Positions 5,561-63,327 of a DNA stretch of 64,000 bases are shown here, one piece after another. Numbering within the stretch: the first letter of the stretch is position 1; every line of letters starts with the position of its first letter. Source of the DNA: a virus (Duplodnaviria; Caudoviricetes); IMG/VR virus record IMGVR_UViG_2724679183_000002, positions 64,001 through 128,000 of that record; one strand, given 5' to 3'. A model generated the notes under the pieces. The model was not told the DNA's origin. It saw only the letters and a program-made list of their open reading frames with translations, and ran no database searches. The translations under genes were made by a program, and so were the position numbers.

Positions 5561-5612
5561 TAATCTAAGTGAAATGCATATTTTATCAAGCTTAAAAATG
5601 GGGGCAAGGAAA

Positions 5613-5870
5613 ATGAATAATAAAGAAACATTTCTAAAGATCGTTGATATTGCAAAAAGAGCAGAAGAAAAGAATTTACTAATGTTCGACAGAATGTCCT
5701 TAATTATGGATTTAAAATGTGTAAATGAAGAATTTAATCTAAGGCTCGAAGACCTATTGAACGCAGATGACTTCAATTTTTCTCATGATATACTCGGTAT
5801 TCAAAATAACCTCAATCGAGAAGAAAGAAAAATGGAAAATCTATTTGTGCCACGTTTTGCAACTTATTGA
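5613..5870 (+). CDS. Small phage protein (DUF6874-like)
   Basis: MDL...LRLEDLLNADDFNFSHDILGI...FVPRFA motif. Confidence 0.6.
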   Translation: MNNKETFLKIVDIAKRAEEKNLLMFDRMSLIMDLKCVNEEFNLRLEDLLNADDFNFSHDILGIQNNLNREERKMENLFVPRFATY

Positions 5871-6177
5871 TAACCTTGAAACAGTTCTTGGTGGGTTTGC
5901 TACTGCAAAAAGCCTAAACGATTTGTTGAGTTTGAACGGAAAAACAACTCTTAAACAGAATGGAGAGAATGAAATGAAAGCATCAAAGTTAGGAATGTAT
6001 CCATTTACGCTTTTTGCTTACTTACTAGATGATAAAGGTAGAGTGATAGAAGAGGTTGAATGGGGAGAATTTAATGATTTAAATGAAGCACATAGAGAAA
6101 TAAAGGAATATCAAAATGAAAAATTAAAATTTCAAATTGCATAACAACAAATATACACAGAACGGCGGCGGAAATAA

Positions 6178-6429
6178 ATGAAAAGATATACAGGTAAAAC
6201 AATGTTGGCTATGGTCTTCGGTTGGGATAATAGCGACATGGCAGAGTGTCAATATAAATCGGGTAGAACTGATAGGCCAGTATTCGTAATAAATGAAGAT
6301 TATTACTGTGCTGTTAAGATAGGACAGAAACCTGCAAAGAATTATGAAGGCATTGAATGGGATTGGGGGAAAGTGGAATCTTCCTTTGCAGAGTCGAATG
6401 GTTGGCAAGTTTGGAAAGCAAAAGGTTAA
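6178..6429 (+). CDS. Hypothetical phage protein
   Basis: 83-aa ORF with RBS-like GGCGG. Confidence 0.55.
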   Translation: MKRYTGKTMLAMVFGWDNSDMAECQYKSGRTDRPVFVINEDYYCAVKIGQKPAKNYEGIEWDWGKVESSFAESNGWQVWKAKG

Positions 6430-6453
6430 AAGATTTTATAGAAAGGAAGATTA

Positions 6454-6654
6454 TTGATGGGGAAAAATAAACTATTTAGTGAGGAAACCGTAACTGTTGA
6501 CAATTGCCAATGCGTATATTGTGGTCATGTATTCAATGGTCGTAACGCTTGCAACGCTAATATGGACGTGCATACTGTTACGTGTCCAGAATGCAAAAAG
6601 GATATGGATGTTTATCTATCTATAGAGTATATATGTAGACCGTCAGAGGATTAA
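6454..6654 (+). CDS. Small zinc-ribbon protein
   Basis: CVYC...CPEC, AAAGGA RBS. Confidence 0.6.
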   Translation: MMGKNKLFSEETVTVDNCQCVYCGHVFNGRNACNANMDVHTVTCPECKKDMDVYLSIEYICRPSED

Positions 6655-6738
6655 AAACCTAGTTCGTATATTTAAGATAAAACAACAATTTCAATTGAAT
6701 ATGATCAGATTATACTATGAAAAGGTGAGGAATTAAAC

Positions 6739-6984: not shown

Positions 6985-7023
6985 TATGAGTTCAAATAAA
7001 ACAGCGATTTTAAGGAGTGTTGA

Positions 7024-8253: not shown

Positions 8254-8327
8254 CTGAGCACTCTGAATAAAAACACCATTTCATGAAAAGTGGGTTCGGG
8301 CTGCCTCATGAGAACAGCCCTTTGCCA

Positions 8328-10830: not shown

Positions 10831-11046
10831 ATGAATAACTTAGAACAACATTTAAAAGAGCAAACGGATGCCTTTTTAGCAGACTGCTTTAATGAATTAA
10901 AACAGTGGCGGGAAACCGGTGTCTTAGAGCAGGGGAAGGTTAGAAATTTACACGATACTTTTAATACGAATATCACTCAGCTACATATGATCAGTGAAGT
11001 AATTTACAGGGAGTTAGCATCAAGATTTGTTGAAAAAGTCAAGTAA
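10831..11046 (+). CDS. Hypothetical phage protein
   Basis: 71-aa ORF downstream of a TTGATC-N17-TATACT sigmaA-like promoter. Confidence 0.55.
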   Translation: MNNLEQHLKEQTDAFLADCFNELKQWRETGVLEQGKVRNLHDTFNTNITQLHMISEVIYRELASRFVEKVK

Positions 11047-11153
11047 ATCTAGAGTAAAATAAGTGAGAAGTTTACAGAGGCCTGCAATTACGTGGAGGAA
11101 ATTGCAGGCAATTTTTATAAAATCGTACTTTCATAAAGAATAGGAGAAAAGAG

Positions 11154-11468
11154 ATGTTGCCGACTTCTTTAAAAACAAAAGTTCAGCGAATTTTATTACA
11201 AGGTAGCTTTAAAAAATCTGAGAGCTCTAAAAGTAGAGTAAAAGGACTAAGCAATATTTCTGCGGGTTTTACTTTTGCCAAGACGTTTGACGACGATTAC
11301 TGCCTCTATTATACAGCCGGTAATATGGCTTTCCGGGGAATGCCTAACGAAGAAAAGGATAATCAAACAGAAAAAATGTATCAGTTCTTATTGGATCAGG
11401 GTCTTCAAAAAAACATTGAACTGATAGATTTTAGAAATCAAAAAGCAATTTTGTTGAAAGTGAAATAA
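11154..11468 (+). CDS. Hypothetical protein bounded by sites 11118 and 11494
   Basis: AGGAG RBS, 104 aa. Confidence 0.6.
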   Translation: MLPTSLKTKVQRILLQGSFKKSESSKSRVKGLSNISAGFTFAKTFDDDYCLYYTAGNMAFRGMPNEEKDNQTEKMYQFLLDQGLQKNIELIDFRNQKAILLKVK

Positions 11469-11530
11469 TTGCACTGCACTTTGAGAAACATCATAAAATC
11501 ACACTTTTGCAGGGAATAGGAGAGGTTATA

Positions 11531-11767
11531 ATGCAGAATACAGTAAAAGTAACTTTCAATGTAAATGGAGTAGAAATCAAAACAGATGGGCGTGTACCGC
11601 AAATGCCTAATGGCATTAATGCAGATAATATGATTGTTTTACATGCTAAAAGCAATTTGAAGAAAAATCTTGGGATTGATATTTATGAGGTCATGAACGC
11701 AGAGCACTATGATGACATTGAACATCTCGTAACTATTGACAAATCAGGCTATACTCAGGGTGTTTAA
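11531..11767 (+). CDS. Hypothetical protein bounded by sites 11494 and 11769
   Basis: GGAGAGG RBS then ATG 11531. Confidence 0.6.
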   Translation: MQNTVKVTFNVNGVEIKTDGRVPQMPNGINADNMIVLHAKSNLKKNLGIDIYEVMNAEHYDDIEHLVTIDKSGYTQGV

Positions 11768-11804
11768 ATAAAATCATTCTTTTATGAAGAGAGGGTTAAT
11801 CAAA

Positions 11805-12065
11805 ATGAAAAATGACTTTTTCGAAGAGCGAAACACAACAAATAAAAACGCGTTTGAAAATAATGAGGAAAATAACTCCGGTTGGTATGACAATGAAACA
11901 GATACATATTTTGAGATAGGCGATAAAGTTATCTGGTGGGGCGATGAAGAAGAAAGAATTGGTGTGATTAAATCCATCAAGGAAGAAACATTTGGGGTAT
12001 TGTGGTCGGATGAACAATATATTGAATATCCTGCGGATCACCAGGATGCAATTAAGAAGGCATAA
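11805..12065 (+). CDS. Small acidic SH3/KOW-like protein bounded by sites 11769 and 12068
   Basis: FEIGDKVIW...GVIK motif. Confidence 0.55.
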   Translation: MKNDFFEERNTTNKNAFENNEENNSGWYDNETDTYFEIGDKVIWWGDEEERIGVIKSIKEETFGVLWSDEQYIEYPADHQDAIKKA

Positions 12066-12088
12066 GATAAAACTACGATTTTAAGGAG

Positions 12089-12331
12089 ATGTATAATATG
12101 CCAAAGAAGTATAGCGACAGAGGCTTTGCAATTTATGAAGAATTAACTGACACTCAACAAACAACTGTTAAAGTTCAGAAAAGCTCTTTAGCTGAAGAAG
12201 AATGCGTATTTATTCTAGGAAATAACGATATAAGCAGTCACCCGGATAAGTATTTCCCACCTCATTTAAATGTGGAGCAAGCAAAGCGTGTTATTAAAGC
12301 ACTACAAGAGTTTGTAGGCGAAAACGAATAA
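12089..12331 (+). CDS. Hypothetical phage protein
   Basis: RGF...D......VQKSSLA...HLNVEQAK, a common phage small-protein pattern. Confidence 0.55.
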   Translation: MYNMPKKYSDRGFAIYEELTDTQQTTVKVQKSSLAEEECVFILGNNDISSHPDKYFPPHLNVEQAKRVIKALQEFVGENE

Positions 12332-12365
12332 ACAGAGTCTAAATATAACAACTCTTTTACAGGAC

Positions 12366-12788
12366 GTGAAGACAGGAGGTGCAGGCTTGGGGTTTAATAA
12401 AACGTTGATCAGTTGTGCTTATACATTGGCATTTTCAAGTTTGTCGTACGGTCTAATATTCGGACTTTATTTGTTTGTTTACTCTGGCTTTGTGCCAATT
12501 GCGTTAATCACTGTGGTTGTCATTGCTTTTTACGCATTAATCACTTACTTTGTATTTGCTCTTCCTTTGCAAATATGGCTGATAAGAAAGCGTAAAAAGT
12601 TTAGTTTAACTCATCTTTTTATTTATGCTGCAGTAGCCTTTTTAGCTGTGCTCTTGTTTTTGGGCATCGATAGCCCTCCTATTGATTTTACAGTTTTCAA
12701 GAGTTTAACTTATTACATAATGAGCATTGTTGCCGCGTTAATTTATTGGTTCTGGGACTCCATATTTTTAAAGGCTTATGACTCCTAG
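12366..12788 (+). CDS. yopD: UPF0715 membrane protein
   Basis: FALPLQIWL...YWFWDSIF; syntenic with SPbeta yopD. Confidence 0.65.
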   Translation: MKTGGAGLGFNKTLISCAYTLAFSSLSYGLIFGLYLFVYSGFVPIALITVVVIAFYALITYFVFALPLQIWLIRKRKKFSLTHLFIYAAVAFLAVLLFLGIDSPPIDFTVFKSLTYYIMSIVAALIYWFWDSIFLKAYDS

Positions 12789-15472: not shown

Positions 15473-15500
15473 TGTTTAAAATACGAATTTTAATCATATA

Positions 15501-15554
15501 AAAATAAAAAATAAGTATAAAGTGATTGACTGAAAATTGTTTGTTCTGTATTAT
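15501..15554 (+). promoter_or_regulatory. aimR sigmaA promoter with an adjacent SPBRE-like repressor site
   Basis: AAAATAAAAAATAAGTATA at 15501-15519; TTGACT(15526)-N17-TATTAT(15549). Confidence 0.7.
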
Positions 15555-15595
15555 AAGAGTATAAACAACGGTACATATGAAAAGAGGGGAATCGA

Positions 15596-16756
15596 ATGGA
15601 GCTTATAAGAATAGCTATGCGAAAAGATTTGGAAAATGATAAATCTCTCATGAGTAAATGGGCTACGGTAGCTGGTCTTAAAAACCCAAACCCCCTTTAC
15701 GATTTCTTAAATCATGATGGGAAAACATTTAATGAATTCTCTTCTCTTGTTAATATTGTGAAAAGCCAGTACCCTGAACGCGAATACGAGCTAATGAAAG
15801 ACTATTGTGAGCATCTTGATCCTAATACTAAAGCAGCAAGAAGCGCATTAGAGTATGCAGATGCGAATAAATACTATGAAATTGAAGACAAATTGATTAG
15901 TTCAATGGTTGAAAGTAGCAATAATAAAAGCAAAGAATATGGAAAGGTATACGAGATACATAGAGAACTAACCCAAGAAAATATTAATGAGTTTGAGGCG
16001 ACAAAAAGACTCGGAAGATTGAATATTAAAACAGCCGAAATGAACAACTTTGCGCGCATTTCTTTGCTATACCATTATCTAGAGTCAGGTAACTTTGCTC
16101 CAATGGATAGATTGATAAAACAAGTTGACCTTTCTGAAGTTAAAGAAAATCTTTTTGTTAAAAACCTATATCAGACCCGAGTTTTTGTTTTACAATCGAA
16201 CATTAAACTGAATGAGAATAAATTAAGTGAATGCAGAGAGTATGCAAAGAAAGCAATTGACAGTACCAATATCCAGAGGTTTCAAGTCTTTAGCTATCTT
16301 ACTGCTGGTAATTCATTATTATTTACAGACTACCACAAAGCTAAAGACTATTTTCTAAAGGGGCTAAGTGCTTCAACTGACAGTAACATCTATCAAAGAA
16401 TATTGAGACAAGCTCTCTGTTTTTTAAACAACGTTTGGGAAAAAGAAAACGATTTTCTAAACACCGATTCTAAGGAGATAATAGATTTACAGGAATACGC
16501 ACATATGCTTATAAATAAAAAAAATACAGAAAGAGCAAAAAAAATTCTGGATCAATTAGATCAATTGGAACATAACGATAATGAGTTGGCCATGCATTAT
16601 TACTTAAAAGGAAAACTCAAAATGGACAAGCAGTGCTTTTATTCATCAATTGAGTACTTTAAAAAATCAAACGATAAGTTTCTTATCAGATTACCGTTAA
16701 TAATGTTAAAACAACTGGGAGAGAATGAAAAGCTTTTAAATCTCTTGGCGTTATAA
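15596..16756 (+). CDS. aimR: Arbitrium receptor AimR (HTH + TPR)
   Basis: 386 aa starting MELIRIAMRKDLENDKSLMSKWATVAGLKNPNPLYDFLNHDGK, close to recalled SPbeta AimR; followed by aimP. Confidence 0.97.
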   Translation: MELIRIAMRKDLENDKSLMSKWATVAGLKNPNPLYDFLNHDGKTFNEFSSLVNIVKSQYPEREYELMKDYCEHLDPNTKAARSALEYADANKYYEIEDKLISSMVESSNNKSKEYGKVYEIHRELTQENINEFEATKRLGRLNIKTAEMNNFARISLLYHYLESGNFAPMDRLIKQVDLSEVKENLFVKNLYQTRVFVLQSNIKLNENKLSECREYAKKAIDSTNIQRFQVFSYLTAGNSLLFTDYHKAKDYFLKGLSASTDSNIYQRILRQALCFLNNVWEKENDFLNTDSKEIIDLQEYAHMLINKKNTERAKKILDQLDQLEHNDNELAMHYYLKGKLKMDKQCFYSSIEYFKKSNDKFLIRLPLIMLKQLGENEKLLNLLAL

Positions 16757-16776
16757 ACTTGAAAGGGGGTGAGAAT

Positions 16777-16902
16777 ATGAAAAAAGTTGTTATGGCAGCA
16801 ATTATTTTAGGAGCACTTTTTGTCTCGTTTGCAGGAGTAAACACAGCCAGTCAACAAGCTTCTGGTAAATACGAAATAGCAGGAATGCCTCGGGGCGCAT
16901 AA
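16777..16902 (+). CDS. aimP: Arbitrium pre-pro-peptide AimP, mature peptide GMPRGA (missed by the ORF track)
   Basis: MKKVVMAAIILGALFVSFAGVNTASQQASGKYEIAGMPRGA*; signal peptide and AAAGGGGGTGA RBS. Confidence 0.97.
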   Translation: MKKVVMAAIILGALFVSFAGVNTASQQASGKYEIAGMPRGA

Positions 16903-16907
16903 AGAAC

Positions 16908-17003
16908 TTGACACATAATTGGGAAAATTATATTATTTACTTAATTAAATTAATTTGTGAAATCAAAAAGACGTTTGGCTCATTGAGCTAGGCGTCTTTT
17001 GTG
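16908..17003 (+). ncRNA. Short promoter-terminator unit at the aimX position
   Basis: TTGACA-N17-TATTAT, then hairpin AAAAGACGTTTGGCTC/GAGCTAGGCGTCTTTT; no ORF seen. Confidence 0.45.
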
Positions 17004-17254
17004 CTTTAAAGTTCACCACGAGATTAGTTCAATTTCGCATAACTAAGGGAAAATCGTCTAATTAAGGTAACTGGTGTACTTACATAACTCTAAAACCACT
17101 ATCAATAATTAAATACTGAAACAGCACATTCGAAAAAAGATTAAAAAGAATGTGCTATTTGTCGTTAAAACATCTTTACTTATTACGTTCAATGCATTAA
17201 AATGAATTTAGAAATCAAAAAGAAAAAATAAGTATTGTTTTAGGGGGAGGAATT

Positions 17255-17455
17255 ATGTCAGCTATAAAGTATTTACAAAGCAGCATGACATTACATAAAA
17301 CCATATATCAGAATAAGTTTGAAAATATTGCTCGTAACGATTTTTTTGCAAACGAAAAGAATTCAGAAAAAGAAAAAATAAAGAGAGGAGAATTCATCAG
17401 GAAGGAAATGACTAAAGGCTATTTGAAATTATTGAGTGCGTGTAAGGAGGGCTAG
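17255..17455 (+). CDS. yopM: Repression-operon protein SroA
   Basis: 66 aa, first gene after aimP, GGGGAGG RBS. Confidence 0.7.
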   Translation: MSAIKYLQSSMTLHKTIYQNKFENIARNDFFANEKNSEKEKIKRGEFIRKEMTKGYLKLLSACKEG

Positions 17456-17460
17456 TACCC

Positions 17461-17793
17461 ATGCAAGTAGTGGACTTAAATGCTACTAAAAAGAAAGTAA
17501 ACAGTACTAAGAGCATTGACGAAAACTTTACTAATATGGTTGTCGAAACATACCTGAATAGCATATTGGACATAAGAAAAATCATACTTAATGCAAAGAC
17601 TCAAAATGACCTATTTAATGCCAAAATGGAAGTGAAAGCGTTGCTCCAGGATATAGATCGTATTCTCAGAGGTGGTGACGTGCTGTCTAGAAACACCGAA
17701 TGCAATCCCCATTATGCTTCGCTAATAACTTTTATGAAACACTTAAAAGCACATATCTCAATTGAATTTGAGCAGTTTATTTATAAACCGTAG
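17461..17793 (+). CDS. yopN: SroB/YopN (lysogeny-promoting, MazEF-interacting family)
   Basis: Synteny and size. Confidence 0.6.
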   Translation: MQVVDLNATKKKVNSTKSIDENFTNMVVETYLNSILDIRKIILNAKTQNDLFNAKMEVKALLQDIDRILRGGDVLSRNTECNPHYASLITFMKHLKAHISIEFEQFIYKP

Positions 17794-17848
17794 CTCTAAA
17801 GGCGGGCATTTATCCTTATTATACATATGGCTTTGTAAGGAGGATTCT

Positions 17849-18070
17849 ATGTCAAAGCGAATTAAAAAGCTGATGGAAGAACGCAACATCACAATAGAAC
17901 AGATTGCAAAAGAAACAATGATTAATATTGAAAAACTCAAGAAAATCATTAATGAACCGCATGAGGGAGATGTAACTTCCGTTAAGCTGATCGCTTTGGT
18001 GCTGGATGTCTCCATTGATGATCTAATTTATGATAACGATTTTAAACGGGAAGGAGGAAAGGAACAATGA
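17849..18070 (+). CDS. yopO: Xre HTH regulator SroC
   Basis: AAGGAGG RBS, ATG 17849; IKKLMEERNITIEQIAKET...IALVLDVSIDDL. Confidence 0.8.
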   Translation: MSKRIKKLMEERNITIEQIAKETMINIEKLKKIINEPHEGDVTSVKLIALVLDVSIDDLIYDNDFKREGGKEQ

Positions 18071-19149
18071 GTGCAGAAATTAAACCTATTAAGGAATATA
18101 AAGTGTTTGATGACATTATGTCGTTTCTCTATAGCAAGGACATAGCCAGTAGCTCTGGGAACTCAAAGTATCAAACCAAGGACGCGCCTATGGTTTCTAA
18201 TACACGAAAAAATTATACAGGTGATATAAAGCAATTTTTCAGGATCTTAAAAGAAAAAGAAATCGAATATTTGTCTGAAAGTGATTTAACGATTACTAAA
18301 AGCGATCTGACAGGGTTTATTAAGTATCTTCAAAGTAAAGGGCTTGTAAACAAAACCATTAAAAGAAAATTAGCATCCCTAAAAATGCTTTATAAGTACC
18401 TTAGCTACGATTACAAAGAATTTATTGACTTAAGTGTTTTTGATTCTGTTGGAAAGTTGAAAACAGTTGAAAAAAACTGGGGAAGAACTAATAAAGAAGA
18501 AGCCGATCTTATCGCAGAAGACATGTATATTAACGAACGCCAAAAACCATTACTCAAAAAGCTTTGTGTGAAGGCAGCAGCAAGAACTTCTTTTCGTCTT
18601 AGTGCGTTATTAAGAATTAGATGGAGTGATTTTGAAATTGATTCAGCGACCGAGCATTATGTGGTTTCTGTTTTAGACAAGGGATCCAAAGTGGTGTCAA
18701 CGGGAATCAATAAATCTTTTTATGAAGAGCTTTTAGAACTAAAGAATAAAAATACAGTCGACACAGATTATGTTTTTAAAGGGCTTTCTGAGCAATCACT
18801 TAGACATTCTTTAAAACGTTCTAAAGAAAGGCTGGGTATTCCGCCAGAGAGGGACTTGAAATTTCACTCTTTTAAGGGAGTGGGTATTGACTATGTTTAT
18901 GAACACACTGGGCACGACATATTAGCTGCAAGAGAACAAGGAAATCATAGCAGTGTATCAACCACAGAACGCTATATGAGCAAAAGAAATGATATATCTA
19001 AAACTGCTGGTGTTATTATGGACGAGGAAATTGAAATAAACAAGCTTTATGAAGCTAAGAAAGAAGATTTTGTTTCTTTTTTTGAAAAAGCAGAGCCGGC
19101 TATACTGAATAAATTCATTAAATTCCTATCGGAATCTAATGGGTTCTAA
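18067..19149 (+). CDS. yopP: Tyrosine recombinase-family protein SroD
   Basis: SAM-like N-domain (TIKRKLASLK) and catalytic motifs TSFR, DKG, HSFK, GNHSSVSTTERY. Confidence 0.88.
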   Translation: MSAEIKPIKEYKVFDDIMSFLYSKDIASSSGNSKYQTKDAPMVSNTRKNYTGDIKQFFRILKEKEIEYLSESDLTITKSDLTGFIKYLQSKGLVNKTIKRKLASLKMLYKYLSYDYKEFIDLSVFDSVGKLKTVEKNWGRTNKEEADLIAEDMYINERQKPLLKKLCVKAAARTSFRLSALLRIRWSDFEIDSATEHYVVSVLDKGSKVVSTGINKSFYEELLELKNKNTVDTDYVFKGLSEQSLRHSLKRSKERLGIPPERDLKFHSFKGVGIDYVYEHTGHDILAAREQGNHSSVSTTERYMSKRNDISKTAGVIMDEEIEINKLYEAKKEDFVSFFEKAEPAILNKFIKFLSESNGF

Positions 19150-19227
19150 TTTTAATGATTATTATTTATTTTTCTCTTGATAATAAAGTTGCCCTTTGGT
19201 AACTTTATTTTAGCGACATAATATGAG

Positions 19228-20631: not shown

Positions 20632-20639
20632 CTTAGGAG

Positions 20640-21629: not shown

Positions 21630-21641
21630 ATAAGTATTCGC

Positions 21642-22216: not shown

Positions 22217-22256
22217 CTTGTAAGGTTGTCAAAGAGAAAAAACATAGTATAGGAGA

Positions 22257-47800: not shown

Positions 47801-47974
47801 AATATTCACGATGAGCTGCAGTTTTTAGTGCATGACGGAGAAGAATGGATATTTCCTCATATTAAAAGGATTATGGAAGATGTGGAGTGGATGCAAGTGC
47901 CCGTTGTGGTTGATTTAGAGATAACAGAAACTACGTGGGCTGATAAAAAAGAAATAGAAATACAAGCATCATAA
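44813..47974 (+). CDS. Family A DNA polymerase with 3'-5' exonuclease, spliced from exons 44813-46615 and 47486-47974 (763 aa)
   Basis: DSETTG (ExoI), GHNVKYD, TVSGRL, DLSQIELR (motif A), KMFNFMR|NYG (motif B), VQGSCAD, IHDEL (motif C). Confidence 0.92.
46616..47485 (+). mobile_element. Group I intron (870 nt) in polymerase motif B
   Basis: P1 ATGCGT|T..AGCGCAT with U.G at the splice site; GCAACGACTA and GATATAGTC (P7); terminal G at 47485; removal restores the frame. Confidence 0.92.
46796..47416 (+). CDS. Intron-encoded HNH homing endonuclease with two N-terminal Myb/HTH-like repeats
   Basis: RWT..E and KWS..E repeats; EHR.VYE, IHHLDEDKKNN..ENL; lies in the P8 loop (ATTGCTAAGGGA/TCCCTTAGCAAT). 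Confidence 0.85.
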   Translation: MARANRWTINESNELIKLWGQNDVEKISELMGRHRLTILQKARELGLRKARSKKWSEGELSFLKENYDSKHSCSRIATKLKRTERSVYTMAERLGLKVTWDYRRIDKDGYIEIILGSSKKTKEHRMVYEKETGIKQKPSDHIHHLDEDKKNNKIENLILLNPSNHNRLHFLINKNDLKGLREFTEVLQEHDKRKYLKWLESLSNVI

Positions 47975-47987
47975 ATAATATTCGGAA

Positions 47988-50137: not shown

Positions 50138-50656
50138 ATGATTAAAGTAATTGCAATTGACATGGATCAGGTTTTGGCAGACTTACTAAGTGATTGGGTA
50201 TCTTACATAAACACACACGATGATCCTTTGCTGAATGAGGAAGACATATTGTGTTGGAATATTAAAAAATATGTAAATACCAAAAACAATGTTTATAGAC
50301 ATTTGGATTACGATCTATTTAGAAACCTTAATGTCATAGAAGGTAGCCAAAGAGTTGTTAAAGAGCTTATGAAGAAGTATGAAGTGTATGTAGTCACAAC
50401 AGCCACAAATCATCCTGAGTCTTTAAAAGCAAAGCTAGAATGGCTGGCAGAGCATTTTCCGTTTATCTCGCATAGTAATGTTGTACTATGTGGCAATAAA
50501 AACATAATTAAAGCAGACATAATGATTGATGACGGAATACATAACTTAGAAACATTTGATGGGATAAAGATACTATTCGACGCACCCCATAACAGGAATG
50601 AAGACAGATTTATTCGTGTAAGAGATTGGGAAGAGATCGAACAAAAATTACTTTAA
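50138..50656 (+). CDS. yorS: 5'(3')-deoxyribonucleotidase (HAD)
   Basis: IDMDQVLAD, IDDG..NL, PHN. Confidence 0.9.
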   Translation: MIKVIAIDMDQVLADLLSDWVSYINTHDDPLLNEEDILCWNIKKYVNTKNNVYRHLDYDLFRNLNVIEGSQRVVKELMKKYEVYVVTTATNHPESLKAKLEWLAEHFPFISHSNVVLCGNKNIIKADIMIDDGIHNLETFDGIKILFDAPHNRNEDRFIRVRDWEEIEQKLL

Positions 50657-50695
50657 AATATCTCTTTTAAAAGAATAAAATTAAATTAAATCGAG

Positions 50696-51450: not shown

Positions 51451-51657
51451 ATGAATCGTGTATGTGATATCTGTAAGGAATACATAGAAGGCCAAATCAT
51501 ATGCCTCAGAGTAAGTGACTTGAAGACTTATGTAGACTTCAATTGTTGCAATGATTGCGCTCAAGAACAATCAAAACGTATTAAGAATGAATGCAGTGAA
51601 ATGACCGTTTCAAAAACTTTGGAACACTTAAATTTAAAAAGTGAAATAAGAGCATAA
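51451..51657 (+). CDS. Small Cys-rich protein
   Basis: CDIC...CCNDC. Confidence 0.6.
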   Translation: MNRVCDICKEYIEGQIICLRVSDLKTYVDFNCCNDCAQEQSKRIKNECSEMTVSKTLEHLNLKSEIRA

Positions 51658-51770
51658 AATATTCCTTTTATCTAGAATTATTTTTCAAATGTAAAAAACG
51701 CCATAAAACTTCTATGGCGTCTGACCAAAAATGGAGGTAATACTAACATGGCGTTTGATAAGGAGAGGTT

Positions 51771-52465: not shown

Positions 52466-52496
52466 ATGAAATTCAATTTTTATATGGAAACGAGGA

Positions 52497-53839: not shown

Positions 53840-54118
53840 TTGGCTAAACTTTTAATAGAATATGAAGGTGCCTTCGAGCTTACAGAAAATGTATGCGGAA
53901 ATAAAATAATGTCTGGTACGACTTTAGTGCGAGACTTAGGGGATTTTATTACTTATGACTTAGTACTCAATGAGAAACCTAAGGTCAATATTAAAAGGGT
54001 TAATGATAAAGGGGAAATTATTCAAGAAATAAGTGGAGTGAAATTGTCAATTTCCGAAAACGAAAATAAGCAAAAAATTTTAGAAAACTTAACAACCTTG
54101 CTAAAAAAATCACTTTAA
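53840..54118 (+). CDS. Hypothetical phage protein
   Basis: 92-aa ORF whose stop codon is part of site 54116. Confidence 0.55.
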   Translation: MAKLLIEYEGAFELTENVCGNKIMSGTTLVRDLGDFITYDLVLNEKPKVNIKRVNDKGEIIQEISGVKLSISENENKQKILENLTTLLKKSL

Positions 54119-54155
54119 AAGTTTTATTTTATATAAACAGAAGAGGAGTTTTAAT

Positions 54156-54482
54156 ATGACAAACGTTAACATTACCTTTTATACGGAAAAGGTAAATAAA
54201 TATCTGGCAAATGAGTATGGATTAATAACAGAGGTAGACGCAGAAGCTAAAGAAGAAAATGGTGAACTTGTTCTTTTTAGAGTTTCTGAAACGGATTTAG
54301 AAAAATTAGAAGACCATCTGGAGAGCGGTAAACGGGTCATTCTTAAACTTAAAGACGATAATGAATATGAAAAATGGTTCAAACTAGATGATATAAAATT
54401 AAAGTCCTTAGATTTAATCAACTGTAAAGCGTTCTTGAAACTAGAAGAAATCTTGGAATTACAAATTGAAATAAAAGGATGA
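54156..54482 (+). CDS. Hypothetical protein bounded by sites 54116 and 54472
   Basis: GAGGAG RBS. Confidence 0.6.
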   Translation: MTNVNITFYTEKVNKYLANEYGLITEVDAEAKEENGELVLFRVSETDLEKLEDHLESGKRVILKLKDDNEYEKWFKLDDIKLKSLDLINCKAFLKLEEILELQIEIKG

Positions 54483-54512
54483 TTTTAAGTAGACAGAAAG
54501 GAAGAGATTGCC

Positions 54513-56072: not shown

Positions 56073-56284
56073 TATTTCTAGATAAAATCACAGTTTCATA
56101 GAAAGGGGAAGTTCAATTGAGCGCAGCAAGAAAGTGGAGAGATCTAAGAAGCAAATTAATTGGATATAAGGCCTTCGGTAAGTTCAGTGATGTTGTTATT
56201 GACCATATTCTCAATGATATGGATGAGTTAGACGTAAGACATGAAAAAGATAAAAACAAAAAATAAAGAAAAGGGAGTTGTGGA

Positions 56285-56635
56285 ATGGGAGCTGCTAAAC
56301 AGTTATACGTTAAGCGCAGTCACTTTGTAACCTTGGATGAAGCAAAAGAAAATACGCAAGTACATATGAAGAATGGCGGTTCTTACACTGCTTTAAAAGG
56401 AGAACTGATTGCAACCAACCTAGAAGGGGATCAAATGGTTATCACACAAGAGCAGAAGGATAATTATATCCCAGTACCAATGACCGAGCTATCAGATTAT
56501 AAAGCTCAAATGGCTAAAGGCTATGCTGAGATGGCTGAGATTAATTTAGAAATGTCTGAAGCATTCCGCCATGCTGAAAATGAAGCAGAAACAACTACGA
56601 ACAGCTTAGTTAACGGAGCATATAAAGAATTTTGA
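56285..56635 (+). CDS. yosL: YosL, MazE(EndoAI)-mimic MazF inhibitor
   Basis: C-terminal MAKGYAEMAEINLEMSE.F.HAENEAETT resembles the B. subtilis MazE C-terminus; upstream of nrdI as in SPbeta. Confidence 0.8.
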   Translation: MGAAKQLYVKRSHFVTLDEAKENTQVHMKNGGSYTALKGELIATNLEGDQMVITQEQKDNYIPVPMTELSDYKAQMAKGYAEMAEINLEMSEAFRHAENEAETTTNSLVNGAYKEF

Positions 56636-56997
56636 TTATTACATATGAAAGCAAGACAGGTAACGTGAAAAGATTTGCTCAAGCAGTACAAAGGAAGTTA
56701 AACTTCGACACCATTGAAATTACAGATGGCTTAATTGTCGAGGAAGAATTCATACATATTACATATACGATAGGCTTTGGGGAAGTGCCTGAAAAGACTT
56801 TGAATTTCATTAATAAGAATAAAAATAAAATAAAGGGAGTTGCTGTGAGTGGAAACAAAGTTTGGGGTGATAACTATGGTTTAGCTGGAGACAAGCTTTC
56901 AACAATGTTCCAAGTACCATTGTTATTAAAGTTTGAACTAAGTGGAACAAAACAAGACGTGCAGAAGATTACTCAGGAGGTACAACTTATTGACTAA
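56632..56997 (+). CDS. nrdI: Class Ib RNR flavodoxin NrdI
   Basis: YESKTGNVKRF, TYTIGFGEVP, SGNKVWG, FELSGT. Confidence 0.95.
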   Translation: MIITYESKTGNVKRFAQAVQRKLNFDTIEITDGLIVEEEFIHITYTIGFGEVPEKTLNFINKNKNKIKGVAVSGNKVWGDNYGLAGDKLSTMFQVPLLLKFELSGTKQDVQKITQEVQLID

Positions 56998-59336
56998 CAG
57001 TATTCCAAAGTGGATCAGGCTTAATAATGAGATCGTTATTCAGAAAGATGGGAAGTTTCAATTCGAGAAGGATAGGGAGGCAGTACACAGTTACTTTGTT
57101 GATTACATTAATCAAAACACCGTCTTTTTCCATGACTTAAAAGAGAAGCTGGACTATTTAATTAAAAATGATTATTACGAAGAAGAATTTTTAAACGAAT
57201 ATACATTTGAGCAGATTAAATCAATTTATAAAATTGCTTACAGTTACAAATTTAGATTCCCTTCCTTCATGAGTGCCTTTAAGTTCTACAATGATTATGC
57301 ATTGAAGACAAACGACAAAACAAAGATTCTGGAAAGGTATGAGGATCGTGTCTCAATTGTAGCCTTATATTGTGCAGATGGTGATTTTGAGAAAGCAGTT
57401 CAGAATGTACACACGATGATGAAACAAGAGTACCAACCAGCTACACCTACTTTCCTTAATGCAGGCCGTAAGCGACGAGGAGAAATGGTTAGCTGCTTCC
57501 TACTCGAAGTAGGAGACAGTTTGAATGATATTTCACGCGCAATTGACATTTCAATGCAGCTGTCTAAATTAGGCGGTGGTGTTGCATTAAATCTAAACAA
57601 GTTAAGAGCCAAAGGCGAAGCGATTAAAGACGTAGAGAATGCAACTAAAGGTGTCGTAGGCGTTATGAAGCTATTGGATAATGCTTTTAGATATGCAGAC
57701 CAAATGGGTTGATTTGGCCCCTTTCGTCAGTAATGGCGATCGAAAACCTCTTTAATTCATGGGAACTCCTACAGGGACAATCATGAGCGAAGCCCATTTG
57801 GGAACGTGCAACGACTAGCCGAAAGGCGTACACTGCAAGCGATCGGTAGTGGAAACGGGAGGCATCCTACAGGGATGAAGATATAGTCTAACCTTCATGG
57901 CAACATGAAGCAGTCATAAGGCGGGGCGTGCTTAGCGAACATGTCTGAATGGTCTGCAAAGACAGGGATCAGGAGCTGCTTATCTCAGTGTTTTTCACCC
58001 AGACATTGTCGACTTCTTAGATGTCAAAAAAATAAGTGCTGATGAAGATGTCCGGGTTAAAACATTGTCTATTGGTGTAGTTGTTCCTGATAAATTTATT
58101 GAATTGGCAAGAGAAGATAAGGACTTCTACATGTTCTATCCTCATTCTGTTTACAAAGAATACGGACAGTATCTTGATGAGATGAACATTAATGAAATGT
58201 ATGACGAGCTTGTTGAAAACCCTAGAGTTAGAAAAGCGAAAGGAAATGCTCGAAAGCTGTTTCAGCAATTAGCAATTCTAAGAAGCGAATCAGGCTATCC
58301 GTATATTATGTTTGCTGACAATGTAAATAAAGTACATCCAAATGAACATATTTCAAAAGTGAAATTTTCTAACCTCTGTAGCGAGGTACTCCAATCTTCA
58401 CAAGTATCAGTTTATACGGATTACAATCAGGAAGATGAAATCGGATTAGATATCTCATGTAATCTTGGATCGATGAACATTGCAAATGTAATGAGTAATC
58501 AATCAATTGCTTCCACAGTAAAGACAGCTATTGATTCCCTAACAACTGTGACAAGAAAAACAAACATTGTAAATGCACCAGCTGTTGCGAGAGCAAATAT
58601 GTTAATGAGATCAATTGGGCTAGGACAGATGAACCTTCATGGTTTTTTGGCTCAAAATAAAATTTCTTATGAAAGTGAAGAAGCTAAGGATTTTGTAAAT
58701 ACATACTTTATGATGGTTAACTTCTACTCCCTCCAACGTTCAATGGAAATTGCGAGAGAAACAGGGGAGACATACTACAAGTTTGATGGATCAACTTACA
58801 AATCAGGCGAGTATTTCGATAAGTACGTGACAAATGATTATAGCCCTCAGTATGAAAAGGTTAAAAAGCTGTTTGGAGATCAACATATTCCTAACATTGA
58901 AGATTGGAAGAAGCTTAAAGAAGATGTGATGAAATATGGCTTGTATCATTCTTATAGACAGGCTGTAGCTCCAACTGGAAGCATCTCATATGTTCAATCA
59001 TCCACTGCAGGTGTAATGCCGATTATGGAGAGAATTGAGGAACGTACATACGGAAACAGCAAAACATATTATCCAATGCCAGGCTTATCAGCTCAGAATT
59101 GGTTCTTTTATAAGGAAGCGTACGACATGGACATGTTTAAAGTTGTTGATCTTATTGCAACAATTCAGCAGCACGTCGACCAAGGGATTTCATTCACGCT
59201 CTTCTTGAAGGACACGATGACAACGAGAGACCTAAACAGAATTGACTTATATGCGCATCACAGAGGCATAAAAACACTGTACTATGCCCGGACGAAGGAT
59301 ACAGGTCAGGAAGGTTGCTTGTCCTGCGTTGTTTAA
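56990..59336 (+). CDS. nrdE: Class Ib ribonucleotide reductase alpha subunit, spliced from exons 56990-57709 and 57957-59336 (699 aa), no intein
   Basis: PATPTFLNAG, SCFL, YADQMG|QRQGSGA, SNLCSE, APTGSIS, C-terminal CLSC. Confidence 0.95.
57710..57956 (+). mobile_element. ORF-less group I intron (247 nt) in nrdE
   Basis: 5' exon ends in U (GGT) pairing with GGCCC; GCAACGACTA/GATATAGTC P7; terminal G; frame restored. Confidence 0.92.
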
Positions 59337-59355
59337 ACGAAGAGGAGGCGGAGAA

Positions 59356-59658
59356 ATGAAGTTTTATTATGAATTCAGAGAAAACGAATATTACGCGTTG
59401 GTTGTTGTAAGTGTTGAGGATAACGATCTTTATACAAAATCGCACGTAAAAGCGGCAGAACTTTATTTAGAGTGCGTTGGAGGCGAGAGTGTAGCCGGAA
59501 TTTTAGAAGAGGCTCATCCAATCTTGATAACCGAAGAGCTTGCATTTTTACGCGTTGCTCAGGATAAAAGCGCTCATGATATCTGCGTAGGGGACTTACT
59601 GAAGCAGTTTCAAGCATCAACAGACGTAGTTCTGCTAATTGATGGTTCGCTACTTTAA
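59356..59658 (+). CDS. Hypothetical 100-aa protein between nrdE and nrdF
   Basis: GAGGAGG RBS, MKFYYEFRENEYYAL. Confidence 0.6.
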   Translation: MKFYYEFRENEYYALVVVSVEDNDLYTKSHVKAAELYLECVGGESVAGILEEAHPILITEELAFLRVAQDKSAHDICVGDLLKQFQASTDVVLLIDGSLL

Positions 59659-59676
59659 ATAAGGGAGGACAAATAA

Positions 59677-61650
59677 TTGACAAAAATTTATGACGCAGCA
59701 AACTGGTCAAAGCATGAAGATGATTTCACCCAAATGTTTTACAACCAAAATGTGAAGCAGTTCTGGCTTCCGGAAGAGATCGCATTAAACGGCGATCTCC
59801 TCACTTGGAAATACTTAGGAAAAAATGAGCAGGACACGTACATGAAGGTGCTTGCCGGCCTGACGCTGCTTGATACAGAGCAGGGAAACACGGGCATGCC
59901 GATTGTGGCCGAACATGTAGAAGGCCACCAGCGCAAAGCTGTGCTTAATTTTATGGCGATGATGGAAAACGCGGTGCATGCAAAGTCATACTCGAATATC
60001 TTTCTAACATTAGCCCCGACTGAAACAATCAATGAAGTCTTCGAATGGGTTAAAAACAATAAGTTTCTGCAAAAGAAAGCAAGAACAATTGTTTCAATCT
60101 ATAGATCAATTGAGAAAAACGATGACATTTCATTATTTAAAGCAATGGTTGCATCTGTGTTTCTGGAGAGCTTCTTGTTTTACTCAGGGTTTTACTATCC
60201 ACTCTACTTTTATGGACAAGGAAAGCTCATGCAAAGTGGTGAAATCATCAACTTGATTATACGTGATGAAGCCATTAAGTGCTAGTGGCATTTAGCAGTA
60301 ATGTTAAATGAAAACCTATCTAAAAAGGGGAAGTCTTATTTGATAAGATAATCCTTTGCTAAATTCTAATCATCATTTAATTATATTTTTAGGAGTGTTG
60401 CCTTGTATTATGTCTATATGATAATGAATAAGCAAAATAAGAAGATTTATATCGGTTTAACAAAAAACGTTAACAACGCTGACGATAGATTTAAACAGCA
60501 TATGCGCTATTTAAAGGGGAACTACCATCATAATCATAAAATGCAAAGAGACTTTAATTTGCATAAATGCTCGGATATTTACACACATCGCTTATTATGC
60601 AAATGTTCTAGCATCAAACTTGCTGAAAATATGGAGAGGTTTTTCATTTCATTTTATAACAGTAAATATTGTGGATTTAATCTAAATGATGGAGGACTCT
60701 CTAATAGAGGTTACAAGCAATCTGATTATGCAAAAAAGGTTGCAAGTGAAGTTCACTCTAAGCTAATTGGTGAAAAGAATCCTTTCTTTGGAAGACGTCA
60801 TTCTGAGAAAACGAAAATGATCATTTCTAAAAAGAATAAAGGAAGAAACAAAGGTATCCCTAAGAGCGATAGTCATATAAAGAAAATGATTGAAAATCAT
60901 GCTAGAGCAAAAAAAGTCTTTGTTAGCGGTCAAATTTACAGCAGTTGTTCGCAAGCTCAATTACATACAGGTATAGATAGAAAGAAAATATCAAAGCTTG
61001 CAACAGATGATTCAGTAACAAACATATACTTTGTAAAATAAAAATGAATGATGATTAGATAAATGCTCAACGACTATTCCATTGGCGGTGGAATTCCGCA
61101 ACAGAAGTAGGGCGCAAGTGATTGGCGTGGGTGAAAACCCCTTAAATCGAAACGGTAGGAATCCTAAATTAGGATTGTGATATAGTCTGCTCTGCATGGT
61201 GACATGTAGCTGTGGTTAGTCCACGCTTTAAGTATAGCGAACTTAAAGGAACATCAAGGACACGGCGTTTACATCGGTTTATTAGCTCAGGAGGTTTATA
61301 AAAATCAAACACCAGAGAAGCAAAAAGAACTGTATGTATGGGCTTTAAGCTTGCTGCAGGAGCTTTATGAAAATGAATTAGAGTATACAGAAGATGTTTA
61401 TGATCAGGTCGGCTTAGCTACAGATGTAAAGAAATTCATCAGATACAACGCAAATAAAGCTTTAAATAACCTGGGATTTGATCATCTGTTTGGGGAAGAG
61501 GATGTTAATCCGATTGTTATTAATGGGCTGAGTACTAAGACCAAGTCCTTTGATTTCTTTTCATTAAAGGGGAATGGATACAAAAAAGCAACTGTTGAGC
61601 CATTAAAGGATTCTGATTTCATTTTCGATAACAAAGGAGCTATTTCATGA
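59677..61650 (+). CDS. nrdF: Class Ib ribonucleotide reductase beta subunit, spliced from exons 59677-60275 and 61260-61650 (329 aa)
   Basis: [24 protein letters not shown]; RDEAIHGVY restored across the junction (GCC AT|A CAC). Confidence 0.95.
60276..61259 (+). mobile_element. Group I intron (984 nt) in nrdF
   Basis: P1 GCCAT|...GTGGC with U.G; CAACGACTA/GATATAGTC; terminal G at 61259. Confidence 0.9.
60403..61041 (+). CDS. Intron-encoded GIY-YIG homing endonuclease with NUMOD3 repeats
   Basis: YVYMIMN...[28 protein letters not shown]. Confidence 0.88.
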   Translation: MYYVYMIMNKQNKKIYIGLTKNVNNADDRFKQHMRYLKGNYHHNHKMQRDFNLHKCSDIYTHRLLCKCSSIKLAENMERFFISFYNSKYCGFNLNDGGLSNRGYKQSDYAKKVASEVHSKLIGEKNPFFGRRHSEKTKMIISKKNKGRNKGIPKSDSHIKKMIENHARAKKVFVSGQIYSSCSQAQLHTGIDRKKISKLATDDSVTNIYFVK

Positions 61651-61889
61651 AACTAATTAAATTAGAGCAACCGAATTGTAACCCCTGCAAAATGGTATCC
61701 AATTACTTAAATCAGGCAGGAGTTGAATATGAGACAGTTGATGTTACACAGAATCCTGATGTAGGGGCGCAATTTGAGGTGATGGGAGTGCCAGTAACTA
61801 TCTTACTTAATGAGCAAGGGGAGGAAATAAAACGAAGTATTGGTTTTAAACCTGAAGAACTTGATGAGTTGTTAAAGGAATTACAATAA
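61647..61889 (+). CDS. yosR: NrdH/thioredoxin-like redoxin
   Basis: CNPC active site, VPV, GFKP. Confidence 0.9.
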
Positions 61890-62120
61890 AAGGAGGGCTA
61901 AGCATATTCGGTTGGAGTTTTAACGGGCTTTTATGGCGGAAGTACATTTTGTTGTTAATTTTTTTAGTTACTATAATACCCTTATTGGTATTTGATTGGA
62001 TAACCTTTTTTAAGATAAAGCATATAGACAGGATTATTCAACGGTATTCAGATTGGGCAGTATATTTAATTTTTGGATAGAAGATGTTTTACATATTAAA
62101 AACAAAAGGAGCTAATACAT

Positions 62121-62555
62121 ATGACAATGCAAATTAAAATTAAATACGCAGATGAAACACAAACCAGAATTAGCAAAATTGAACAGGGTGATTGGATTGA
62201 TCTACGGGTAGCTGAAGATGTAACAATTAAAAAAGATGAGTTCAAACTTATTCCGCTAGGAGTTGCGATGGAGCTACCAGAAGGCTATGAAGCCCATGTT
62301 TTGCCGCGTTCAAGTACATTCAAAAACTTTGGCATCATTGAAACAAACTCAATGGGAGTTATTGATGAATCATATAAAGGAGACAATGATTTCTGGTTCT
62401 TTCCTGCTTATGCATTACGTGATACAGAAGTTAAAAAAGGGGAGCGTATCTGTCAGTTCAGAATCATGAAGAAGATGCCAGCAGTTGAATTGATTGAGGT
62501 AGATCATCTAGGCAACGATAACCGAGGTGGTCACGGATCGACTGGAACTAAGTAA
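62121..62555 (+). CDS. yosS: Trimeric dUTPase (intact)
   Basis: [30 protein letters not shown]. Confidence 0.93.
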
Positions 62556-62822
62556 TACAAGCCCTGGCTTTGATCTTGATGTGAAACTGTCCAGTGAAGG
62601 GTCACAGCCAGGGTACAACTTAAAATACTCGAAAATTTTAACAAATATACCTGCAAAGGACTTGCTTGATGAAAAAAAGATTACGTAAAAAGGCGTGGAA
62701 GACAGGGAATACGAAACATGGTGAATTCATGTTTAATGTAGTTGATAAAGTAAGTGCAGATGGCAATGTGTATTATCCAAAAGGACACTATCATGTTGAC
62801 AGGAAAGGGGATATGTACAAGT

Positions 62823-62984
62823 TTAAAATTTAGAAAAAAGCGAAATTGTGATGGCTAAAGTTGACAAAGAACTTAAGGATATCAAAGAAATCATTTTTCG
62901 GTTACTTTGCTTTTTTGAAGGTTTACTTAGTTCATGGATGACTGCACCCCATAAAAGCATGGATGCTAAAATGATAATACTCAT
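62823..62984 (-). CDS. 53-aa small membrane protein
   Basis: AAAGGAG RBS; MSIIILASMLLWGAVIHELSKPSKKQ. Confidence 0.45.
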   Translation of the reverse strand: MSIIILASMLLWGAVIHELSKPSKKQSNRKMISLISLSSLSTLAITISLFSKF

Positions 62985-63327
62985 ATCTAACGATACTCCT
63001 TTACTTGTTTTTTTAAAACTTTACCACATATAGGATAGAGATGTCGATGAAATGAACATCTCTATAAAAGAAGACTTTTATCTAAAACAATAAGGAGGAA
63101 AAAGATCATAAACAATAACAGTTATAAAGATTTGCAAGCAAAATATGACGACATGCTCTTCAGGAATGGTCTGTGTTTAGGATTTATTCAAAAACATGGG
63201 CTTGAAGATGTGTTTTTGGAGCATATGAAACAAGTTGCAGCTTATGAAGAAGACCAAAGGTATAGAGTTGCAGCAGTTAATTTTTTGAGTTTATTAGAAT
63301 CAAATTAAAACAAAAAGGGGTAAAAAT

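Follow-up and report, generated by a model that had tools for sequence, protein, structure and literature searches.

A 16-bp palindrome, TRAAA-N6-TTTYA, recurs at gene junctions in a 64,000-nucleotide stretch of a tailed-phage genome (IMG/VR record IMGVR_UViG_2724679183_000002), here called the window, and its copies are addressed joints. Each site carries its own conserved centre, the centres keep their order from phage to phage, genes are replaced in register between them, and the switch from one neighbour to another falls at or inside the 16-mer. This description of the sites is held with high confidence. The window comprises bases 64001-128000 of a 140,932-bp provirus record (labelled G000), and nearly all its genes lie on the + strand. 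The provirus is SPbeta-like, its conserved parts being 82-88% identical to Goe11/12/14, SPBc2, phi3T and relatives, with a similarity that covers only 12-34% of a 20-kb query. Among 18 public sequencing runs listed, all in the form of contigs, one contains half or more of the sequence words of the window and may be its source sample. Positions are those of the window unless another record is named.

The junction motif and its placement

The motif was searched as the pattern TRAAANNNNNNTTTYA, counting exact matches. The window holds 28, whereas 100 dinucleotide-preserving shuffles gave a mean of 3.05 (standard deviation 1.91, maximum 8) and none reached 28. Only the 6-nt spacer is enriched, the counts for spacers N0 to N14 being 3, 4, 4, 2, 3, 2, 28, 2, 4, 0, 5, 4, 5, 3 and 2, and three control arrangements (arms in reverse order or as direct repeats) showed no N6 peak in the window. 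The motif is confirmed as real and strongly non-random. A preliminary description of this DNA had counted 25 exact copies; the observation stands, with 28 as the number, and the ten cores that it named were all found where it placed them.

Five motif-bearing genomes were checked, namely G000, SPBc2, phi3Ts and two further genomes, G003 and G004. The whole provirus contains 40 copies (nine in its first 64 kb and 31 in the remainder), SPBc2 contains 36 (with 0-10 for other spacers), phi3Ts 34, G003 31 and G004 42. Two sets of IMG/VR loci were also assembled. For the YorS set, 32 loci were fetched around a YorS-like gene and showed the N6 peak in 27 cases, with 2-10 copies per locus; these 27 were kept together with two genomes, and L028, L029 and L033-L035, which have no such peak, were dropped. 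The YoqW set consists of 45 loci around a YoqW-like gene plus two genomes, and the totals of its 45 loci for N3 to N9 are 24, 53, 25, 437, 32, 13 and 34.

In SPBc2, 117 early-arm junction zones (14,226 nt) gave 1, 0, 0, 1, 24, 3, 0, 2 and 2 matches for N2 to N10, against 0, 1, 3, 1, 5, 2, 0, 3 and 3 in the remaining early-arm coding sequence. Since the N6 peak is present within the junction zones alone (24, versus five in coding sequence), A/T-rich intergenic composition is not its explanation. A host-wide motif was rejected, as a 4.8-Mb Bacillus genome, one genome and not necessarily that of the host, has 165 matches versus 151 for a control pattern.

The anatomy of the element was drawn from 76 distinct site contexts of G000 and SPBc2, all oriented by transcription before alignment. 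They place the 16-mer in the middle of a longer palindrome, TYTnnA-TAAAA-N6-TTTTA-TnnARA. In the left outer arm, positions -6 to -4 are T in 51/76, Y in 61/76 and T in 50/76 contexts, with A also at -1, and in the right outer arm, positions +19 to +21 are A in 58/76, R in 71/76 and A in 68/76, with T/A at +16. As the symmetry extends outward of the 16-mer, the element is a 28-bp palindrome made of two 11-bp arms and a 6-bp centre. The centre is biased at its outer positions (T/G first, A/C last) and near random at the inner four. Positions -4 to -2 of the left outer arm are usually occupied by the stop codon of the upstream gene, which restricts the last sense codon to NTY, so that the motif is imposed on the coding sequence. 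Two readings of the element were rejected. As an RNA hairpin or terminator, the 32-nt contexts average -2.2 kcal/mol versus -1.3 for shuffles (RNA parameters), with only 2/28 at or below -5. As a promoter, sigma-70-like matches between 22 and 37 kb number 38 versus 52.7 expected, and only two of them use a site arm as the -10 element; terminator-like matches do not fall on the sites either.

About one third of SPbeta-like gene junctions carry a site, lodged between the stop codon of one gene and the ribosome-binding site of the following one. By manual reading, 25 of the 28 window copies either overlap a stop codon or come after one and ahead of the next start, the three others (48151, 51597 and 63438) being matches inside open reading frames (ORFs); likewise, 31 of the 36 SPBc2 copies are intergenic or on a stop codon and five lie within genes. 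The stop codon is indeed contained in the site at 29249, 33109, 50654, 51655 and 54116, as first described. The sites at 11769, 12068, 27199, 27651, 36339 and 52467 do start just past the stop, at 1-2 nt after its last base, and the bracket 11494-11784 turned out to have, at its left end (11494-11509), the one-mismatch sequence TAAAA-TCACAC-TTTTG in place of an exact copy. The preliminary description had seen no site inside three operons, and exact copies are absent from 15477-23290 (sro operon), 36339-48151 (yorE-pol) and 56083-63065 (nrd). Among the features annotated in the SPBc2 record are stem-loops and two other palindromes; the class of the junction palindrome is missing there.

Conserved centres and breakpoints at the joints

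Within a genome, no centre is used twice: 40/40 are unique in G000, 36/36 in SPBc2 and 34/34 in phi3Ts, which bears out the early remark that the core differs in every copy. Between genomes, the same centres recur in the same order. G000 and SPBc2 have 16 identical centres in 1440 site pairs, versus 1.14 expected, and 15 of them are collinear; in 14 of these 15 pairs, both 60-nt flanks are below 50% ungapped identity and unrelated by eye. G000 and phi3Ts have 16 identical centres versus 1.08 expected, and SPBc2 and phi3Ts have 23 versus 0.97 expected, with the order of centres kept. Per base, centres deviate from the majority in 1.5-2.5% of cases and arms in 2.6%, the arm figure being limited by the one-mismatch search.

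The two sets of loci, which together cover 15 of the window's 25 junction sites, reveal how many different neighbours one site can have. Flanks were clustered by ungapped comparison of 30-40 nt; as these proviruses are related to one another, n is a number of copies rather than of independent events, and it is the numbers of distinct flanks that are robust. Over the two sets, a single 16-mer can have as many as 12 left and as many as 18 right neighbours that are unrelated to one another. For instance, address GATCAA (YorS set, n=25) stands between 11 left and 6 right flank clusters. All four combinations of two lefts with two rights are present at all nine window addresses located at 23-34 kb (YoqW set). 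Copies inside conserved genes have a single left and a single right flank in both sets.

Homology between related phages breaks at or inside the 16-mer and the replaced accessory genes lie between sites, so the expectation of the preliminary description on this point was borne out. SPBc2 and phi3Ts are identical over long blocks, and recent exchanges are thus visible as sharp steps. At SPBc2 83688, 92753, 113664, 129297 and 131162, the two phages are unrelated on the left until 1-6 nt before the 16-mer and identical from the 16-mer rightwards. At SPBc2 86886, identity enters from the left, crosses the centre and stops inside the right arm, and the TTTTA/TTTCA arm variant accompanies the right flank. 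In 186 unique context pairs, chosen so that one flank has at least 94% identity and the other at most 42%, sustained divergence on the right sets in at +16 to +18 in 43/96 pairs and inside the right arm in 12/96, and divergence on the left sets in at -1/-2 in 55/90 and inside the left arm in 4/90. Several blastn matches between G000 and SPBc2 also start or stop on a site. One indel could be resolved in full. Where SPBc2 has site-yorT-site-mtbP-site after yorS, the window has a single site (50654), which agrees in its left part and centre with the first of the three SPBc2 sites (after yorS) and in its right flank with the third (after mtbP).

Breakpoints were also counted over 119 SPBc2 early-arm junctions, 35 of which have a site (at most one mismatch), omitting junctions without a DNA match on either side (13+23 for phi3Ts, 16+30 for G000). 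Versus phi3Ts, breakpoints were found at 16/22 junctions with a site and 19/61 without (Fisher p=0.001), and versus G000 at 17/19 with and 24/54 without (p=0.0009). In the laboratory hybrids Hyb1-3 (phi3Ts x SPbeta), the switches between parents lie either within 1.4-18 kb of identical sequence or, in the late region, within short segments common to both, and the ends of identical blocks coincide with sites; as exchange took place within long identical stretches, the hybrids neither need nor exclude the sites. The deletion of the cassette between GATCAA and TTTGTC in L008 (versus L010 and L012) could be assigned cleanly neither to the site nor to the adjacent A-rich leader.

The sites of the window are as follows (clusters given as left x right).

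5570-5585, junction site, core TGCATA, 10 nt past the stop of the ORF at 3764-5560; core collinear in SPBc2 (69424) and phi3Ts (62423)
6678-6693, junction site, core CAACAA; same core collinear in phi3Ts (63395), both flanks <50% identical
6997-7012, junction site, core CAGCGA
8268-8283, junction site, core ACACCA; closes a + strand gene run, followed by a convergent - strand ORF
11118-11133, junction site, core TCGTAC, directly after a hairpin; same core collinear in phi3Ts (65259)
11494-11509, near-copy with one mismatch
11769-11784, junction site, core TCATTC; identical 16-mer in G003 and G004
12068-12083, junction site, core CTACGA
15477-15492, junction site, core TACGAA, flanked by a terminator hairpin and by the promoter region on the aimR side; SPBc2 76171 in the same place has a different core
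23290-23305, junction site, address TGTAAG; YoqW set n=35, 6 x 16 clusters, all four left-right combinations present
24861-24876, junction site, address GATGCA; YoqW set n=43, 11 x 18 clusters in 33 combinations; identical 16-mer at SPBc2 86074, flanks unalignable
26433-26448, junction site, address GGATTA; YoqW set n=25, 10 x 6 clusters
27199-27214, junction site, address TCGTGA; YoqW set n=28, 7 x 11 clusters
27651-27666, junction site, address GATAGT; YoqW set n=31, 11 x 16 clusters; identical in SPBc2 (92394)
29249-29264, junction site, address TAGTTA, stop codon inside; a blastn match to SPBc2 begins here; YoqW set n=18, 8 x 6 clusters
31912-31927, junction site, address CAGAGA; YoqW set n=24, 6 x 10 clusters
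33109-33124, junction site, address ACGATA, stop codon inside; YoqW set n=38, 8 x 11 clusters
33310-33325, junction site, address GTAATT; YoqW set n=19, 5 x 6 clusters
36339-36354, junction site, core TTGTAA, 1 nt past the stop of the ORF at 34595-36337
48151-48166, match within the ORF at 47988-48734, not a joint; related copies elsewhere have one left and one right flank (YorS set)
50654-50669, junction site, address TATCTC, stop codon inside; the window has no counterpart of two SPBc2 slots here (yorT, mtbP)
51597-51612, match within the ORF at 51451-51657, probably chance
51655-51670, junction site, address TATTCC, stop codon inside; YorS set n=20, 4 x 7 clusters
52467-52482, junction site, address TTCAAT; YorS set, TAAAA form, n=20, 4 x 5 clusters, all four left-right combinations present
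54116-54131, junction site, address GTTTTA, stop codon inside; YorS set n=20, 9 x 14 clusters
54472-54487, junction site, address GGATGA, stop TGA within the core; YorS set n=21, 12 x 10 clusters
56083-56098, junction site, address TCACAG; YorS set n=10, 7 x 3 clusters
63065-63080, junction site, core GAAGAC; a blastn match to SPBc2 begins here; identical 16-mer in G004
63438-63453, match within the ORF at 63328-63594, probably chance

Slots and their cassettes

The segments between sites, 439 in number, were clustered into 252 families, and a slot is written here as left>right address. Families with at least two members nearly always retain both addresses, as in 13/13 cases for GATCAA>TTTGTC and 9/9 for TTTGTC>TATTCC. 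The same slot can hold several unrelated families, at least six in TATTCC>TTCAAT, five in TATCTC>GATCAA and three in GTTTTA>GGATGA. The few families with a different left address are cases of missing upstream slots, and exchange between different addresses, which have the arms alone in common, is rare. As gene families are confined to their own slot, the exchange is in register and not integron-like. The preliminary description had proposed an integron-like cassette system; its view of the sites as replacement points for accessory genes holds, but site identity stays with the position and the order is fixed, contrary to the integron part of the proposal.

Cargo of a possible defence type, also suggested at the outset, was found in one bracketed cassette. 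The single gene between the sites at 24861 and 26433 (24952-26373, + strand) specifies 473 aa with a TIR/SEFIR domain at the N-terminus (Pfam E-values 1.5e-19 and 2.5e-16; phrog_11745), and it may be a defence or counter-defence gene. In SPBc2, the antirepressor gene yoqD follows the same address, GATGCA (window site 24861). The slot GATCAA>TTTGTC (L009, L010, L012 and L013, about 11000-12700) holds a methyltransferase-type cassette in some phages (mtbP in SPBc2), and its absence from the window, L008 and L009 is a loss of the whole slot. In the slot TCGTGA>GATAGT, a 136-aa ORF (27239-27649, + strand) matches phrog_21421 'integrase' (E-value 8.6e-57) with no Pfam domain; it is far too short for a recombinase, so this label is doubtful.

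After the site at 33310 (about 33326-33350), a good ribosome-binding site, AAAGGAGG, is followed by ATG and immediately by TAA, forming a start-stop mini-ORF. The A-rich word TAAAAATAAAAT (at most one mismatch) occurs 6-8 nt past some junction sites, two to three times per genome (window 15499 and 31934; SPBc2 113687, 116439 and 132770; phi3Ts 104655 and 124540), as a common leader ahead of unrelated genes.

A phyletic profile identified 43 genes that are conserved in motif-bearing genomes only. Two virus records of 151 and 160 kb (G001 and G002; L068-L084), treated as motif-free with one motif copy each, have about 6-12 genes in common with G000 (nrd, yorS-type), nucleotide-metabolism genes being all that they share with the window. 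These records carry 12-15 copies of a G+C-rich palindrome, GGGTTGA(CA)...(TG)TCAACCC, whose full form with 9-bp arms and a 3-bp centre is found in seven copies, in G001 only.

Candidate mechanisms and known systems

In tyrosine-recombinase sites, the 6-8-bp overlap must match between partners. The junction sites obey this logic in their strict spacing and dyad symmetry, in their 11-6-11 layout and in their equal centres. The mechanism that we tentatively prefer is read from this layout: a dimeric protein would bind both 11-bp arms, and a tyrosine-recombinase-type exchange would occur across the 6-bp centre, working only between equal centres. The partners would be a phage and a prophage, or the genomes of two phages residing in one cell. 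In this proposal, the requirement for equal centres would restrict crossover to the same joint, so that whole genes would be traded unbroken. The enzyme could be the XerH/Cre-like SroD/YopP or the host Xer recombinases. The phage-encoded candidate is the following.

18067-19149, + strand, SroD/YopP-like two-domain tyrosine recombinase (Pfam SAM-like and Phage_integrase), putative enzyme of the exchange

All five motif-bearing genomes that were checked encode a SroD/YopP-like protein. Ten homologues, the most distant with 24% identity, all keep R177, K205, H267, H294 and Y303, which were assigned by eye from known motifs as the first catalytic arginine, the lysine, two histidines and the tyrosine nucleophile. 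The best fold matches of its structural model (mean pLDDT 79.1) are XerH-difH (E-value 7.7e-10) and Cre-loxP. Against the XerC and XerD models, it scores weakly (42.5 and 34.3 bits, for cut-offs of 335 and 330), and against the integron integrase model TIGR02249 it reaches 18.2 bits for a cut-off of 265. In the accessible part of a review on dif sites, the XerH half-site is printed as ending in ATGAAAA beside the central region (PMC5357621). Beyond the window, a canonical-looking tyrosine recombinase is encoded at G000:C1:34987-36003 (- strand; HDLRH box, C-terminal Tyr; PF00589, 79 bits). In SPBc2, yomM occupies the corresponding slot, with a product only 24% identical to this protein. The stop codon of the G000 gene abuts the junction site at 34970-34985, the recombinase gene being itself an exchangeable cassette. 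Next to the recombinase-like genes of the window lies a SroE/YopQ-like gene (19228-20631, + strand) with a DndB match (PF14072, E-value 1.1e-13) and a DGQHR domain model below cut-off.

Several observations weigh against this mechanism and its candidate enzyme. In SroD/YopP, the second catalytic arginine is a lysine in 4/5 phages and R in phi3Ts only, and the protein is just 34-63% identical among phages whose arms are identical. Among six distant SroD-like records, five were counted whole, and the motif is present in two (13 vs 1, 39 vs 7) and absent from three (0 vs 1, 7 vs 5, 6 vs 2); the sixth, of which a 21-kb locus was scanned, has no N6 peak. Brady and co-workers are said to have described SroD in 2023 as an auxiliary repressor. 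YomM was rejected as the universal enzyme, since that of SPBc2 has no tblastn match in G000 and since G003 and G004 have no recombinase in the yomM slot. Moreover, breakpoints occur also without a site, as the 19/61 and 24/54 broken site-free junctions indicate, and none of the parent switches in the laboratory hybrids needed a site. The fullest version of the enzymatic mechanism, a natural recombinase-mediated cassette exchange in which SroD/YopP or a hijacked host Xer would trade single accessory genes, those for defence and counter-defence included, in register between co-resident phages through about 35-40 heterospecific 11-6-11 sites per genome, is considered rather unlikely.

All crossover-mapping data are equally well accommodated by short-homology recombination at a palindrome that binds a protein and is kept for another job, architectural or regulatory, with no dedicated site-specific recombinase. 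This is an alternative only slightly less likely than the tentatively preferred mechanism, in which the 16-28 bp kept at the same joint in all relatives would serve as a landing pad and the agents would be the Sak4-like YorG, the RecJ-like YorK or template switching, in a shuffling akin to that of the promoter early stem-loops (PeSLs) discussed below. The annotated proteins of SPBc2 include a Holliday-junction resolvase as well as an annealing protein (Sak4-like) and an exonuclease (RecJ-like), the laboratory hybrids arise by homologous exchange, including at shared stretches of about 39 and 87 bp, and the broken site-free junctions point the same way. PeSLs provide a published precedent for repeat-mediated shuffling, as far as the accessible part of that paper goes (PMC2839356). 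However, 16 identical bases are very short for homologous exchange, and a second function would be needed to account for the N6 spacing and the dyad symmetry, promoter, terminator and stable RNA hairpin being ruled out. Exchange between different addresses is rare, but short homology would lead one to expect this as well.

A pure binding site for a regulator or an architectural protein (for example the HU-like YonN or an HTH protein), with breaks clustering through selection against recombinants that cut genes, is improbable. The preliminary description had already raised a regulator site as an alternative. Dimeric DNA-binding proteins typically recognise palindromes whose half-sites are centred about one helical turn from each other, and an HU-like protein is found in all four other motif-bearing genomes, with 58-93% identity. 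Yet, if the regulator does not touch the spacer, there is no reason for the centres to diverge as little as the arms do, or for a centre to survive a change of both its neighbours; breaks that fell at random and were then sorted by selection would be spread over the intergenic spacer, whereas 98/186 start within 2-3 nt of the 16-mer edge; the sites lie between cistrons and not at promoters; and the MrpR ChAP-seq peaks are reported at SPBRE promoters only, in the available text of PMC10516654. As for chance or composition, by which an A/T-rich context of stop codon and leader would yield the pattern, its probability is negligible. Intergenic DNA is A/T-rich, the stop codon falls at -4 to -2 of the left outer arm, and some copies are plain coincidences, such as an overlap with a ribosome-binding site at G000 45568 and the three coding matches, but the spacer profile already refutes this reading, with no shuffle in 100 reaching the window's count and 24 N6 matches versus 0-3 for other spacers in the junction zones alone, and the 4.8-Mb Bacillus genome shows no excess.

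No published description of the junction palindrome was found in the literature on SPbeta-like phages and phage mosaicism, in a search that covered articles and left supplementary files aside, nor in the available text of PMC10516654 and of the Kohm et al. preprint. The closest analogue by effect is the PeSL, by site architecture pdif/dif, and by logic engineered heterospecific cassette exchange, and the sites are a member of none of these. According to the accessible part of the original description, the PeSLs of T4-type phages (Arbiol et al. 2010, PMC2839356) consist of a strong promoter and a terminator hairpin, and recombination between them makes mini-circles. Like the sites, they are short, repeated and intergenic and lie where small non-essential genes are numerous, and indels and replacements end at them. 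By contrast, the junction palindrome has neither an excess of promoters nor a stable hairpin, each copy has its own centre, and exchange takes place between equal copies in different genomes, whereas PeSLs, as described there, recombine with one another.

The pdif sites and dif modules of Acinetobacter plasmids are acted on by the host XerC/XerD (Mindlin et al. 2019, PMC6449649), and dif sites have an 11-6-11 layout (PMC5357621), both sources being taken in the parts available. The 11-6-11 layout, the partial dyad symmetry and the many copies flanking accessory genes in a mobile replicon are common to both systems, a likeness of layout. Unlike dif modules, which according to these sources move between plasmids as units, cassette and site stay here with the slot.

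The MrpR/SroF operator SPBRE is a repeated intergenic element of the same phages and is bound by a protein of tyrosine-recombinase fold. In the available parts of its descriptions, it is phage-specific and found at about 10 promoters, an asymmetric 15-bp motif (24-26 bp box) that a monomer recognises (PMC10516654; bioRxiv 10.1101/2025.11.27.690993). The junction palindrome is symmetric and lies between cistrons, with 34-40 copies in each genome, and its arms do not differ between SPbeta and phi3T. The distinction from SPBRE drawn in the preliminary description is thus upheld by number, symmetry and place, the SPBRE sequence itself being outside this comparison.

The integron likeness lies in promoterless single genes, each followed by an imperfect palindrome, and in a tyrosine recombinase encoded nearby. 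An integron attC travels with its cassette, is much longer, works as a folded single strand and allows a free cassette order. Here, the site belongs to the position, the order is fixed, the hairpin is negligible and the integron-integrase model is far below cut-off. In engineered cassette exchange with heterospecific lox or FRT sites, arms are identical, spacer variants recombine with like only, and segments are swapped in register. That is a laboratory design with a known enzyme, whereas the junction sites form a natural pattern with about 35-40 centres per genome. Finally, the linkers of Botstein's modular theory of 1980 and the lambdoid 'boundary sequences' of Clark and co-workers in 2001 are reportedly short conserved sequences between modules, proposed to guide recombination. 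They differ in being heterogeneous and at the scale of modules, while one strict motif, labelled joint by joint, here separates single genes at dozens of joints.

Whether the mosaic joints of phages at gene borders reflect guided exchange at conserved linkers or random breaks sorted by selection has been debated since 1980. A model phage family now shows dozens of single-gene joints with one strict motif, a label of their own and crossovers mapped within a few bases. As SPbeta and phi3T are genetically tractable in Bacillus subtilis, the question of linkers versus selection is open to direct experiment. If an enzyme is involved, the sites would represent a natural multi-site cassette-exchange system and a possible tool, and if the natural cassette exchange described above were true, they would amount to a device dedicated to evolvability and would directly attest linkers of the Botstein type. 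Since the slots hold accessory genes, one of them encoding a TIR/SEFIR protein, the mechanism may bear on the speed at which phages re-assort such genes.

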